Positions 31,221-34,959 of a stretch of 64,000 nucleotides of DNA are shown here, one piece after another; position 1 is the first letter of the stretch; each line of letters opens with the position of its first letter. A program made the position numbers and the translations under genes. The notes under the pieces are model-generated. The model saw nothing but the letters and a program-made list of their open reading frames with translations, was not told the DNA's origin and searched no databases. Source of the stretch: Candidatus Binatia bacterium (GTDB taxonomy: Bacteria > Desulfobacterota > Binatia > UBA12015); NCBI GenBank assembly GCA_019749875.1, contig JAIEPK010000479.1:7184-71183 (forward strand), in the 5' to 3' direction.

Positions 31221-33089
31221 TCAGGCGTCCACGCTCACATCGGCCTCGGACTTGGCCTGGCACGCGAGGATCCAACCACCGGTCTTCTCGGACGAGCTCA
31301 GGCCATCGTCCACCGCCATCGAGACGTGTCCCTCCAGCAGGCGGACCTTGCACGCCCCGCAGAAGCCCTGACGGCAGGAATAGTCGATGGCAACTTCGAT
31401 CTCGTCAGCGACCTCGAGGATCGTACGCTCGGGCGGAAGCGGCGCCTTCTTCTCGGACCGAGCGAAGGTGCACGTTGCGGCGCTGGGCACACCCGAAGGC
31501 GCAGGAACGAGCGGGGCCTCCTTGACCTCGGGGCTCAAGAAGAGCTCCATCTTGACGGCGTCGGAAGGGACCCCGAGCTCTGCGAGCGCGGCTTTCATCG
31601 CATCCATCATGGGAGGAGGGCCGCACACGTGAACGCGTCGTGCCGCGAGCTCCGGTATAGTGGCCTGGAGGAGCTCGCGCGTGATTCGCCCGCGCGCTCC
31701 CGTCCAACCTTGTGAAGGCTCGGCAGTCAGAGAAATCGTCACATGCAGGTTCGGATGACGCTTTGCGAGATAATCCAGCTCCTCGCGAAAGATCACTTCG
31801 TCGAGCTGCGAAGTGCCGTAGACGAGATAGATGTCGCCGGCCCAGCTCTGGTCCGTCAGAAACCGGATCGAGCTCATGAGTGGCGTGATCCCCACGCCAC
31901 CGGCGATCATCACGACGCTCGACGCCTCACGGCCGCGGAAGGTGAAGCGGCCGAATGGGCCGGCCACGTCGATCGTGTCCCCGACTTGCATTCGCTCGTG
32001 CAGCACAGCCGAGACGGCCCCGCCGGTCACATGCCGCACCGTGATCTCACACCAGCCCTGACAGCACGGCGAGGATGCGATCGAGTACGAGCGCTTGACC
32101 TGTCGGCCGTCGACCGCAACACGGACCGCAAGGAACTGTCCCGGCTCGAACGTGAACGGCAAGTTCTCACCCAGGAGAGGTGCCAGCCGGAACGTCTTCG
32201 TCGTCGGCGTTTCCTGGAAGATGCGCGCGATCCTGAGCTGTCCGGACCACGCGCCGGTCGTCGACGGGACCTGCGTGACGACCGGTTCATGCGCCTGCGC
32301 TGCGACCGCCCGGCCCGTTGTCGCCGCGGTCTCCGGTGTCACGACCGGGCCGCGACGACCGACTGCCGGGGCCAGGCGATCGGCAAGCTCGCGAGCTCGG
32401 CGAATCCGCGCCATCTGGACGGCGCCCAGAATTGCCGCGCATCCCCCCAGCACGAGCATCGCGAAGTAGTGAAAGCCGGATGCCCTCGTCCGCTGCTCCC
32501 CCTCGTACGGGGTCACCGGCAAGTGCATCTCGCGCTTGAACCAGCGCAGTGCGACGTTCCGCGGCGACTGGCCCTCGACCAGTGCGCGCTCGGCAGCCAG
32601 ACCGCTGTCGAATTCGGCAAGCCCCTGGCCGATTCCTTCGGTGGCCTGCTGCATGGCCGCGTAGTCGTGCCGCTCTGCCGCAGACGCGAGGGCGGCGACC
32701 GCGCTCGAGACTCGATCCAGGCCGCTGCTCATGCGTCCGCGCGCGCGCGCTGCGACCTCTTGCCTCTGCTCGGGTGGCAGATCGGGAAGCTCCATCAGGG
32801 CGGGATAGAGCTCCTTCTGCGGCGGGCGACCGTGCGACTCCATCATCCGCCCCATGTCGCCCATCATGTCCTTCGCGCCGGGATCGGGAGCCGGCCCAGC
32901 CCCGCCCGCGGCATGGTGCTGTGCATGGGCATCGCTGGTCGTCGCCTGTGCGGAGCTCGGGACCGGAAGCACGACGGTGACGCACAACGCACAAGTCAGC
33001 GCTGCGGCGGCTGCATGGATGACGCGATTCTCGATCGATCGGCGAGGTCGGGGCGCCGCGTCCGGGTCAAACATAGGCGTTTGCCGCAT
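31221..33089 (-). CDS. Membrane-anchored FAD/NAD(P)-binding oxidoreductase with C-terminal 2Fe-2S ferredoxin domain
   Basis: FAD motif RSYSIAS, NAD-binding GGVGITP, 2Fe-2S ferredoxin cysteines CRQGFCGACK. N-terminal signal/TM and a Met/His-rich segment MMGDMGRMMESHG. Confidence 0.75.
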   Translation of the reverse strand: MRQTPMFDPDAAPRPRRSIENRVIHAAAAALTCALCVTVVLPVPSSAQATTSDAHAQHHAAGGAGPAPDPGAKDMMGDMGRMMESHGRPPQKELYPALMELPDLPPEQRQEVAARARGRMSSGLDRVSSAVAALASAAERHDYAAMQQATEGIGQGLAEFDSGLAAERALVEGQSPRNVALRWFKREMHLPVTPYEGEQRTRASGFHYFAMLVLGGCAAILGAVQMARIRRARELADRLAPAVGRRGPVVTPETAATTGRAVAAQAHEPVVTQVPSTTGAWSGQLRIARIFQETPTTKTFRLAPLLGENLPFTFEPGQFLAVRVAVDGRQVKRSYSIASSPCCQGWCEITVRHVTGGAVSAVLHERMQVGDTIDVAGPFGRFTFRGREASSVVMIAGGVGITPLMSSIRFLTDQSWAGDIYLVYGTSQLDEVIFREELDYLAKRHPNLHVTISLTAEPSQGWTGARGRITRELLQATIPELAARRVHVCGPPPMMDAMKAALAELGVPSDAVKMELFLSPEVKEAPLVPAPSGVPSAATCTFARSEKKAPLPPERTILEVADEIEVAIDYSCRQGFCGACKVRLLEGHVSMAVDDGLSSSEKTGGWILACQAKSEADVSVDA

Positions 33090-34959
33090 ACTGCTGGACC
33101 ATCCGATGCGTATTGAAGAACGACGCGTTGAAGGCGATCGTCCTTCGCATCACGTCGATCCACCCGTCGCGGTCATCATAGTACAGCGGCACGATGACGT
33201 CGGTGAGCTTCTCGTAGAGTCGGGATGCGTCCGCTCGGTTGGCCTCGTCCGCGGGCACCGACCCGTCATCCAGATCCTCCCCGATTGACCAGCCCGTCAC
33301 CCCTTCCATGTGGCCCTCGATCCACCAGCCGTCGAGGACGCTCAGGCTCGGAATGCCATTGTGCGCCGCCTTCATCCCCGAGGTACCGGACGCCTCGAGC
33401 GGGCGAAGTGGCGTATTGAGCCAGAGGTCCACTCCCGAGGTGAGCAAGCGAGCAAGCTCCAGGTCGTAGTTTTCGAGGTAGACCACCGTTACCCTTCCAG
33501 CGAGTGCCTTCGCAGCTTCGAAGATGCGCCTGATCATCTCCTTGCCGGGCTCGTCCTTCGGGTGTGCCTTGCCAGCGAAGACGAATTGCAGTCGCCCGAC
33601 CTGGCTCGCAATCTCCACGAGCCTCGCCGGATCGAAGAACACGAGATCGGCGCGTTTGTACGCGGTCGCCCGACGAGCGAAGCCGATCGTCAGACAATCA
33701 GGCGCCAGATTCTGCGACGTCGTTCGTCGGATCTCGTGGAGCAGCGCCGTCTTAGCCTCTGCGTGCGCCGACCAGATCTCGTCGCGCGGGATCCTCACCG
33801 CATGGCGCAGCGAAAACGGGTCTCGAGCCCAGCCTGGGACGTAGCGGTCGTACCTCCGCCTGAACGCATCGCACGTCCAAGCGAAGGAGTGGACCCCGTT
33901 CGTAACCGCGTCGATCGCGTAGCCCGGAAAGAGATGCTGGGACACCTCGCCGTGCCGCTTGGCGACGCCGTTCACGAAGTGAGCCAGGTTCAGCGCCAGG
34001 AACGTCATGTTGAGCTGTTCTGATCCCGCGAGCATTCGCAGCTCGTCCAATGGCACGAAATCGCCGAGCACGTCATGGACCAGCTCGTACGAAAAGCGAT
34101 CGTGCCCCGCAGGCACCGGGGTATGCGTCGTGAAAACGCATTGCCGCTTCACCTGCTCGATCGCCTCGGCCAGGGGCGTTTGCTCCTGTCGTTCACGAAG
34201 CAGCTCGAGAGCCAACAGGCTCGCATGCCCTTCGTTCAGGTGAAATCGCTCGAGCCCTCGGTGGCCCAGCGCTCGCAACATGCGGATGCCGCCGACGCCG
34301 AGGACGACCTCCTGCGCCAGACGGTAACGCTCGTCGCCTCCGTAGAGACAGGCCGTGATCGTGCGATCCGATGACGCGTTCTCCTCGACATCGGTATCGA
34401 GCAAGATCAACGGCACCGTGTAACCGCTTGCGCCGCGCACGTCGTATCGCCATGCGCGAACGGCGACCGATCGACGCTCGATCGTGACGTGCACGACCGG
34501 TGCTACAAGCGCCGCAATCTCATCTGCCTTCCATTCGACGGGGTGCTCCCGCTGCTTTCCCGGCTGCTCGATGGTCTGGTCGAAATAGCCCCGCCCGTAC
34601 AGGATGCTGACGCCCACGACCGGAATCTTCAGGTCCGCGAATGATCGGAGCGTGTCTCCGGCGAGCACCCCGAGCCCGCCACTGTAGATCGGCAGACGCG
34701 GGTCTACCGCGACCTCCATCGAGAAGTATGCGATCCTGCGCACCGCCGGGTCCAGCGCCGCGTCTGGCGGACTCGGCGTATGCGCGAAAACGTCCGGCCC
34801 CAGCCGGAACACGTCGGAGCAGTAGGAAGAGCAGAAGAAGAAGTTCCGCCCTTCAAAGACCGACGAGCGAGCGTCCCGCCGGTCGACCGCCATTCCACAG
34901 ACTGGGTCCCGAGCAAGCCCGGAGTTCTCGGCTGCCGTCACCGGTTCTGAATCTTCCAT
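33067..34959 (-). CDS. Alpha-glucan phosphorylase (GT35, small maltodextrin-phosphorylase-type) with N-terminal YHS metal-binding domain
   Basis: N-terminal DPVCGMAVD...[8 protein letters not shown] YHS pattern, then [27 protein letters not shown], the alpha-glucan phosphorylase core. Confidence 0.8.
   Translation of the reverse strand: [630 protein letters not shown]

Follow-up and report, generated by a model that had tools for sequence, protein, structure and literature searches.

We describe a conserved gene fusion in which an N-terminal YHS/TRASH-type metal-binding domain is joined to a short-form alpha-glucan phosphorylase. The representative studied here is encoded on the minus strand at 33067..34959 of a stretch of 64,000 nucleotides from Candidatus Binatia bacterium (contig JAIEPK010000479.1), hereafter the window. 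The fusion is conserved and widespread, and is found preferentially in copper/heavy-metal resistance islands. We favor, with a probability of about 50%, the interpretation that the YHS domain is a metal sensor that gates glycogen phosphorolysis during metal stress, thereby providing glucose-1-phosphate for ATP, NAD(P)H and nucleoside diphosphate (NDP)-sugars. An initial sequence-only reading of this DNA had proposed a copper-type sensor on a carbohydrate-storage enzyme; this proposal has strong circumstantial support, in that the window gene and fused homologues in many phyla lie in copper/heavy-metal clusters, whereas metal binding and regulation by the domain are what we infer. To our knowledge, no transition-metal-sensing glycogen phosphorylase has been described, and the enzyme is a textbook example of allostery.

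The gene is complete and consists of one uninterrupted 630-aa open reading frame (ORF) with an ATG start, the translation of which contains both peptides quoted in the sequence-only reading. A full-length homologue, P0001, shares 97% identity with the product, while an identical protein is encoded solely on a 2.1-kb Logan contig. The YHS segment and the phosphorylase core are not separated by a stop codon, and the only start codons located 5' of the YHS segment are ATG 34959, which has a GAGG at -12 to -9, and GTG 34941 six codons in. The next Met after ATG 34959 is M23, which lies inside the CGM motif of the YHS domain. Because there is no stop between the two domains and M23 is inside the CGM motif, the alternative raised in the sequence-only reading, i.e. 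a start further downstream together with a separate small YHS ORF, is excluded; moreover, no alternative start keeps the core intact, and a mis-called start is thus also ruled out.

The YHS domain comprises aa 17-60 (34780..34911, minus strand) and matches PF04945 over profile positions 2-45 of 47 with 35.5 bits and E=1e-8. This score is above the gathering cutoff of 30.3, and the earlier concern that the motif might fail profile detection therefore does not apply. Within the domain, a regular-expression search located the ligand motif D18-x2-C21-x21-C43-x3-C47 (34819-34908, minus strand), in which D18, C21, C43 and C47 match the pattern D/C-x2-C-x19-22-C-x3-C. For YHS/TRASH domains, a metal site made up of an Asp and three Cys has been proposed (PMC4626032). 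C43 and C47 are invariant among 16 aligned fused homologue sequences (alignment A1), in which D18 and C21 are at least 90% conserved. The complete ligand motif is present in 115/120 top homologues. Two of the remaining sequences (P0015, P0022) are without the full motif solely because their gene call begins at the CGM Met; in the other three (P0021, P0023, P0024), FFFDSEYC replaces FFFCSEYC such that an Asp takes the place of C43. An Asp at this position can still serve as a ligand, and the substitution at the third ligand may alter metal specificity. The YHS domain is connected to the core by a variable Pro/Ala-rich linker (about aa 61-75; 34735..34779, minus strand) that was delimited from the conservation in alignment A1, where columns of about 60-74 have low conservation and small length differences. 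In an AlphaFold2 (AF2) model of the protein, the predicted local distance difference test score (pLDDT) falls to 55 in the 61-70 block.

The remainder of the protein, aa 76-629 (33073..34734, minus strand), is a short-form phosphorylase core of the GT35 family. It matches the TIGR02094 profile, alpha-glucan family phosphorylase, with 561.3 bits (cutoff 191.7) over model positions 1-598 of 600, and PF00343, Phosphorylase, with 112.7 bits (cutoff 27). Thus, the Pfam and NCBIfam profiles fully support the domain call of the sequence-only reading, i.e. YHS plus alpha-glucan phosphorylase. The core belongs to the same TIGR02094 family as the Thermococcales maltodextrin phosphorylase; however, it scored 468 bits against the NF041129 equivalog profile for that enzyme, for which the cutoff is 1500, and is accordingly a relative rather than an equivalog, the preferred substrate of which may be maltodextrin or glycogen. 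The E522-A-S-G-T-S-G-M-K530 motif, which contains the lysine that binds pyridoxal phosphate (PLP) (Lys530 in EASGTSGMK; 33370-33372, minus strand), as well as GKAHP and a 13-residue motif are invariant in alignment A1.

The closest solved structure is the Segatella copri glycogen phosphorylase (9l6i/20yr), which shares the TIGR02094/GT35 family, the motifs and the predicted fold with the window core. The core aligns to 9l6i with E=4e-99, EASGTSGMK pairing with EASGTSGEKA, and Foldseek with the AF2 model returned 20yr/9l6i as the best matches, confirming the phosphorylase fold. Compared with 850-aa phosphorylases, the core of ~555 aa is without the N- and C-terminal extensions and has the YHS domain at its N terminus. 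The matches in the PDB start at query residue 75, i.e. no solved phosphorylase carries a YHS module; similarly, we know of no characterised phosphorylase with an N-terminal YHS domain. In total, the profiles, motifs and fold show that the product is a short-form, PLP-dependent phosphorylase of alpha-1,4-glucan (glycogen/maltodextrin) with a core that is predicted to be catalytically intact.

The sequence-only reading had left it to be decided whether the fusion is conserved or specific to this locus. We found a conserved and widespread family with homologues in many phyla, and a locus-specific fusion is therefore ruled out. Among the best 120 clusters at 90% identity, which include sequences from NC10/Methylomirabilis, Nitrospira and Thermoanaerobaculia, 118 are annotated with both PF04945 and PF00343. 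The fused genes originate from at least nine bacterial phyla, including Nitrospirota, NC10, Planctomycetota (anammox bacteria among them), Acidobacteriota, Cyanobacteria, Bacteroidota and Omnitrophota, and the single-ORF architecture is kept at 50-70% identity across phyla. A species scan with one genome per species detected fused genes in Planctomycetota (Phycisphaerae, Gemmata and the anammox bacteria Kuenenia, Loosdrechtia and Brocadiaceae) as well as in Tolypothrix, Nostoc, Ignavibacteriales, Bacteroidetes, Blastocatellia, Edaphobacter, Vicinamibacterales, Myxococcales, a deltaproteobacterium and Omnitrophica. Moreover, a plasmid search identified the fused gene in cultured cyanobacteria, i.e. 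Stanieria PCC 7437 (WP_015212119.1), two strains of Leptolyngbya boryana (WP_017292204.1), Chroococcidiopsis and Aulosira. When clustered at 50% identity, the fused clade shrinks to a few representatives (P0126, P0130, P0191, P0256), and this clustering gives no count of the size of the fused family.

In a neighbour-joining tree of the cores, which was built without support values, the fused forms fall into at least two larger clades. The first contains the window protein together with proteins from Nitrospira, cyanobacteria and Acidobacteria, while the second contains those of anammox bacteria, Ignavibacteria, Bacteroidetes and Omnitrophica, in which the YHS domain is two residues shorter. 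A third, isolated fused lineage (L048) has a different YHS signature (DLVCHM...FCGKGC). Unfused relatives with 55-61% identity interleave with the fused clades, which suggests that the YHS domain was repeatedly gained or lost. Based on its presence in 118/120 clusters, at least nine phyla and at least two to three clades with different YHS subtypes, we conclude that selection acts on the fusion. Public databases already contain proteins with this architecture, labelled only as alpha-glucan family phosphorylase or glgP. A full-text literature search found no paper on a YHS-phosphorylase fusion or on glgP as a metal-island gene; a match for DUF2933 and phosphorylase concerned thymidine phosphorylase and was discarded. 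Thus, what is new is the combination of a known enzyme and a known sensor domain, which is undescribed, conserved and has a distinctive genomic setting.

To compare this setting, proteins of the window were used as a tblastn panel against loci taken from the species scan, of which 21 are fused and 51 are unfused and chromosomal. A CopA-type ATPase, CusA or a multicopper oxidase was encoded within 10 kb in 13/21 fused loci and in 0/51 unfused loci (Fisher p = 2.9e-9; the loci are not fully phylogenetically independent, and the positive loci span at least eight lineages). Similarly, Pfam searches of the three genes on each side of the fused genes detected E1-E2 ATPase (6), extra YHS (6), HMA (3), cupredoxin (3), ICMT (3) and ACR_tran (2), none of which was detected in the corresponding genes of unfused loci; the neighbours of unfused loci instead included trehalose-phosphatase, amylase and response regulators. 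In a motif scan, extra YHS-type sequences were present at 10/21 fused loci, with two of the matches containing stops and thus representing chance, and at 3/51 unfused loci, where the matches were chance-like.

The gene orders at the fused loci follow several recurrent arrangements. CusCBA followed by the fused phosphorylase recurs in L010, L016, L018, L025 and L058, and in the Blastocatellia locus L025, MgtC is located downstream of CusBA and ~2.7 kb upstream of the fused gene. In Nitrospira-type loci, the order is multicopper oxidase, CopB, in some cases Fur, and then, after further genes, YHS-phosphorylase, DUF2933, ICMT and GH57, followed by a small YHS protein, NTP-transferase, an HtrA-like protease, Usp, Rieske and cytochrome b; in three of these loci (L006, L010, L088), a GH57 with the architecture of the window enzyme is located 1-3 kb from the fused phosphorylase. 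Another fused locus encodes an HMA-ATPase, a cupredoxin, YHS, a methyltransferase, an M50 peptidase and YHS-phosphorylase, and then DUF5676, CBM48, glycogen synthase, GAPDH, a P-type ATPase and ICMT. On the cyanobacterial plasmids in RefSeq (Stanieria PCC 7437, Leptolyngbya boryana), glgP is part of co-directional arrays of metal genes that encode HMA proteins, several heavy-metal P-type ATPases, a multicopper oxidase, MerR and a four-helix-bundle copper-binding protein as well as DUF2933/ICMT, DUF5676, Usp, DUF305, HtrA and phosphoketolase. Cu/Zn-superoxide dismutase (SOD) is among the stress/redox neighbours of fused genes. Moreover, within metal islands the fused gene is accompanied by genes for GH57, GlgA with CBM48, NTP-transferase, GAPDH, PFK and phosphoketolase. 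Finally, in a Thermodesulfovibrio metagenome-assembled genome (L080, 3164-6909), an unfused phosphorylase, which is preceded by CopA and an HD-domain protein with an N-terminal Cys motif (CVACQ...CCEKC), is directly followed by a YHS-histidine kinase (6040-6909). This arrangement, in which sensors of the YHS type are part of signalling proteins, supports a link between YHS and phosphorylase in the manner of a Rosetta stone.

The window itself is a large copper/heavy-metal island over the stretch 1-47000. The sequence-only reading had placed the gene beside an oxidoreductase/cytochrome operon; this neighbourhood is correct but was underestimated, because the gene lies inside a CusCBA-MgtC-GlgP-reductase-cytochrome-Fur-CopA array. 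In the order of transcription, this minus-strand array encodes an outer-membrane factor, CusB, CusA, MgtC, YHS-phosphorylase, a reductase, a 224-aa membrane protein, a multihaem cytochrome, a Fur-family regulator and a P1B ATPase. The genes for CusA, CusB and the outer-membrane factor, which form a heavy-metal resistance-nodulation-division efflux system, are located upstream at 35592..41561 on the minus strand (ACR_tran 722, HlyD_D23/CusB 245 and OEP 148 bits), and a second outer-membrane factor is encoded at lower coordinates in the island. The MgtC-family gene (35048..35491, minus strand; PF02308, 129.6 bits) lies directly upstream of the phosphorylase gene, from which it is separated by an 88-nt gap. 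The CusCBA-MgtC-phosphorylase-reductase order is repeated in 97%-identical contigs.

Downstream, the phosphorylase gene overlaps the reductase gene by 23 nt, as had been noted from the sequence alone, with the segment 33067-33089 being shared. The overlap is also present in the 97%-identical relative L002 and is kept across L002-L004, which suggests that translation of the phosphorylase is coupled to that of the NAD(P)H-type reductase. The reductase (31221..33089, minus strand) is a 622-aa membrane-anchored protein in which profile searches detected FAD_binding_6, NAD_binding_1 and 2Fe-2S ferredoxin domains following a Met/His-rich N-terminal region (MMGDMGRMMESHG). It is followed on the same strand by ORFs for the 224-aa multi-transmembrane protein (30543-31217) and the multihaem c-type cytochrome (29756-30736). 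These three genes (29756-33089) look like a transmembrane electron conduit that is split over several proteins and may reduce Cu(II) or another metal. The same set of three is again found close to a phosphorylase gene in Gemmata, where that gene is fused (L014), and in Thalassoglobus, where it is unfused (L075). A promoter scan of 28-42 kb detected no sigma-70-like sites and terminator-like sites only at chance level, and does not inform on operon boundaries.

Two overlapping minus-strand ORFs are candidate genes at 28417-29650, one of which (28943-29650) encodes a Fur domain while the other (28417-29055) has no Pfam match; on the 97%-identical contig L002, the gene caller keeps only the 212-aa ORF of this pair. 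The Cu(I)-type P1B ATPase (CopA; 25969..28383, minus strand) was identified by profile and motif matches and has a CPC motif, an HMBD and its own N-terminal YHS domain at 28177-28269. At 442-1392 on the minus strand, the island encodes a class III adenylyl/guanylyl cyclase (PF00211, 23.4 bits) with a C-terminal YHS domain (motif DPVCRM...FCSLEC at 490-582), which at 27.5 bits is slightly below the cutoff; the true start of this ORF is probably the internal Met preceding FCFVDLAGFT. Together with the phosphorylase, CopA and the cyclase thus bring the number of YHS proteins in this one island to three.

The sequence-only reading had also pointed to a GH57 alpha-glucan enzyme, the gene for which we confirmed at 2916..5282 on the minus strand with 198 bits. 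It lies between genes for an AraC regulator and a multicopper oxidase and is therefore part of the same island as the phosphorylase 28 kb away. In total, three multicopper oxidases are annotated in the window (5323-6747, 15317-16780 and 20884-22311). Genes for NTP-transferases, a GT2 glycosyltransferase and an ArnT/PMT-like membrane glycosyltransferase cluster inside the island at 7901-14649 on the minus strand, and their products could use NDP-sugars derived from glucose-1-phosphate for envelope modification. The island, which also encodes a Rieske and cytochrome b/c fusion at 44623-46847, is broken by a fragment of an IS66 transposase gene (24860-25618), and an rve integrase gene (50272-51312) is located just past the island.

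If the YHS domain acts as a metal sensor, it would bind Cu(I), or possibly Zn, Cd or Ag, as the level of metal in the cytoplasm rises, and the metal-loaded domain, acting via the short linker, would change phosphorylase activity by allostery. The enzyme would thereby release glucose-1-phosphate from alpha-glucan stores at the very time at which the cell depends on the efflux and redox systems encoded next to it. Since Fe-S enzymes and respiration are poisoned by copper, glucose-1-phosphate could under these conditions yield ATP by substrate-level phosphorylation, NAD(P)H to supply the FAD/NAD(P)H/2Fe-2S reductase of the overlapping gene, and NDP-sugars for envelope remodelling via the nucleotidyl-transferase and glycosyl-transferase genes of the island. 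Activation would be the likeliest direction of control by analogy with the sole characterised YHS enzyme, an adenylyl cyclase of Mycobacterium phlei, on which the YHS domain confers activation by Cu2+ and for which an Asp and three Cys were proposed as ligands (PMC4626032). This cyclase was activated at 1-10 uM Cu2+, the lowest range tested, from which its authors infer a nanomolar half-maximal effective concentration (PMC4626032). A more specific version of the metal-gating interpretation, in which YHS-GlgP is switched on by cytoplasmic Cu(I) and is the dedicated glycogen "fuel line" of mobile copper/heavy-metal resistance islands that feeds efflux pumps and the coupled reductase/cytochrome module with ATP, NAD(P)H or NDP-sugars while respiration is poisoned, is one that we put forward tentatively, as possible rather than probable.

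The resemblance to known regulatory systems is partial. The M. phlei cyclase (Linder 2015, PMC4626032) likewise combines a catalytic domain, a short linker and one YHS domain with an Asp and three Cys; by contrast, its YHS domain is C-terminal rather than N-terminal, its catalytic domain is a different one and its linker is 8-11 aa rather than the about 15 aa of the window phosphorylase. The cyclase encoded at 442-1392 in the window shares both its architecture and its ligand signature with this Cu-activated enzyme. The YHS/HMBD region at the N terminus of CopA, a copy of which is encoded 5 kb away in the window, shares the Pfam domain and the DPVCGM...FCS..C signature with the phosphorylase; however, in CopA the domain is placed before a transporter, the metal substrate of which it is believed to bind, whereas the YHS domain studied here precedes a soluble carbohydrate enzyme. 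Glycogen phosphorylases are controlled by AMP and phosphorylation in animals and by HPr binding in E. coli (PDB 9s8k). As in classical phosphorylase allostery, the regulatory input would be at or near the N-terminal part of a GT35 enzyme; by contrast, the proposed effector is a transition metal that acts via a dedicated fused domain, in place of a nucleotide, phosphorylation or the binding of another protein.

Several observations speak against metal gating. In Synechocystis, the canonical, unfused glgP is repressed, and not induced, by high copper (PMC4182526). The AF2 model, which was computed from a 16-sequence alignment, is of moderate quality (pLDDT 72.8) and does not inform on the docking of the YHS domain on the core. 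In L005, the fused gene is located among sugar-transport and amylase genes. Moreover, unfused short-form glgP is also present in metal islands on plasmids of Simkania, Pseudorhizobium and Methylophaga. On the chlamydial conjugative plasmid pSn of Simkania negevensis (L094; L093 and L095 are the remaining plasmid loci of this unfused set), the order is P-ATPase, TolC, CusB, CusA, unfused glgP and merA, with glgP located directly downstream of CusA with a 3-nt gap and merA/MerR adjoining. The Pseudorhizobium plasmid encodes GAPDH and unfused glgP with ICMT, DUF2933 and a P-ATPase nearby, and the Methylophaga plasmid DUF1622, unfused glgP, MerR, DUF2933 and glgX. Accordingly, the possibility that the YHS domain is required for the association with metal islands is ruled out, and the association of this phosphorylase clade with metal islands extends beyond the fused forms. 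Finally, DUF2933/ICMT, phosphoketolase/acetate kinase and Usp-type genes, which are among the island neighbours, are members of the microoxic FixK2 regulon in Bradyrhizobium, and the shared theme may be hypoxia, dormancy or low-oxygen survival, overlapping or replacing the metal theme.

The strongest alternative, although in our view unlikely, is that the YHS domain is a structural zinc ribbon that holds Zn permanently, or no metal at all, and stabilises or oligomerises the short phosphorylase, as a substitute for the N-terminal domain of ~100 aa in long forms and without a function in signalling, in which case the location in islands would reflect the core alone. Two precedents agree with such a role and weigh against sensing, i.e. 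the TRASH fold in L24e is a structural Zn ribbon, and the YHS domain of toluene-4-monooxygenase was without bound metal in the crystal (both as given in PMC4626032). The long-form enzyme 9l6i has ~108 extra N-terminal residues at the place of the YHS domain, and the unfused plasmid-borne genes described above are equally compatible with a ribbon. By contrast, many equally short unfused relatives (55-61% identity), for which function is predicted, do without an N-terminal module; the fusion apparently arose more than once and with different YHS subtypes; and copper genes and extra YHS proteins are enriched at fused, but not at unfused, chromosomal loci.

Two further alternatives appear improbable, and about equally so. 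In the first, the domain would sense redox rather than metal, with Zn being released from the Cys3-Asp site, or a disulfide being formed, under oxidative or thiol stress, including that caused by copper. Zn-Cys redox switches are known from Hsp33 and ZAS anti-sigma factors, and the three conserved cysteines as well as the stress and redox neighbours (reductase, cytochromes, Usp, HtrA and Cu/Zn-SOD) fit such a switch. However, the same YHS type is present on CopA ATPases and in stand-alone YHS proteins in the islands, which points to metal handling, and the one experimental precedent is direct activation by Cu (PMC4626032). In the second, the domain would have no part in regulating catalysis and would be a docking or metal-transfer module that holds the phosphorylase at CopA or at other YHS/HMA proteins, or that serves as a Cu(I) buffer on a cytosolic protein of high abundance, such that ATP-yielding glucan breakdown takes place beside the pump. 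The CopA proteins in the window and at many related loci have their own YHS domain, and stand-alone YHS or HMA proteins are often neighbours; by contrast, the short linker to the catalytic domain recalls the sensor layout of the YHS cyclase, and we know of no evidence for YHS-YHS interaction. Lastly, that the fusion is an artefact (a separate gene or a mis-called start) or a neutral passenger of mobile metal islands is largely refuted and very improbable: even though a few database entries (P0015, P0022) begin at the CGM Met, and the IS66 fragment and rve integrase in the window and the plasmid location of fused genes attest to mobility, the ORF has neither a stop between its domains nor another start that preserves the core, its architecture persists at 50-70% identity across phyla, and the association recurs across CusCBA-linked, CopA-linked, plasmid and chromosomal islands.

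Metal gating by the YHS domain makes predictions that can be addressed directly, since fused genes are present in the cultured cyanobacteria Stanieria PCC 7437 and Leptolyngbya boryana. The finding would moderately surprise specialists, and with a metal-gated phosphorylase the YHS/TRASH domain, which is poorly understood, could be studied in a second system that is easy to assay. Were the fuel-line version to hold, resistance islands would carry a class of genes with a function that had not been recognised before, and a textbook enzyme would gain a new mode of allosteric control. If the YHS domain were only a structural Zn ribbon, the repeated occurrence of short-form glgP in metal islands would nonetheless be a regularity that lacks an explanation and merits recording. 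If, on the other hand, the YHS domain gates activity, the mobilisation of carbon reserves would be directly tied to metal homeostasis, and this would explain why glucan-metabolism genes travel with copper islands in groups of environmental importance, i.e. in Nitrospira, anammox bacteria, NC10, Acidobacteria and on cyanobacterial plasmids.

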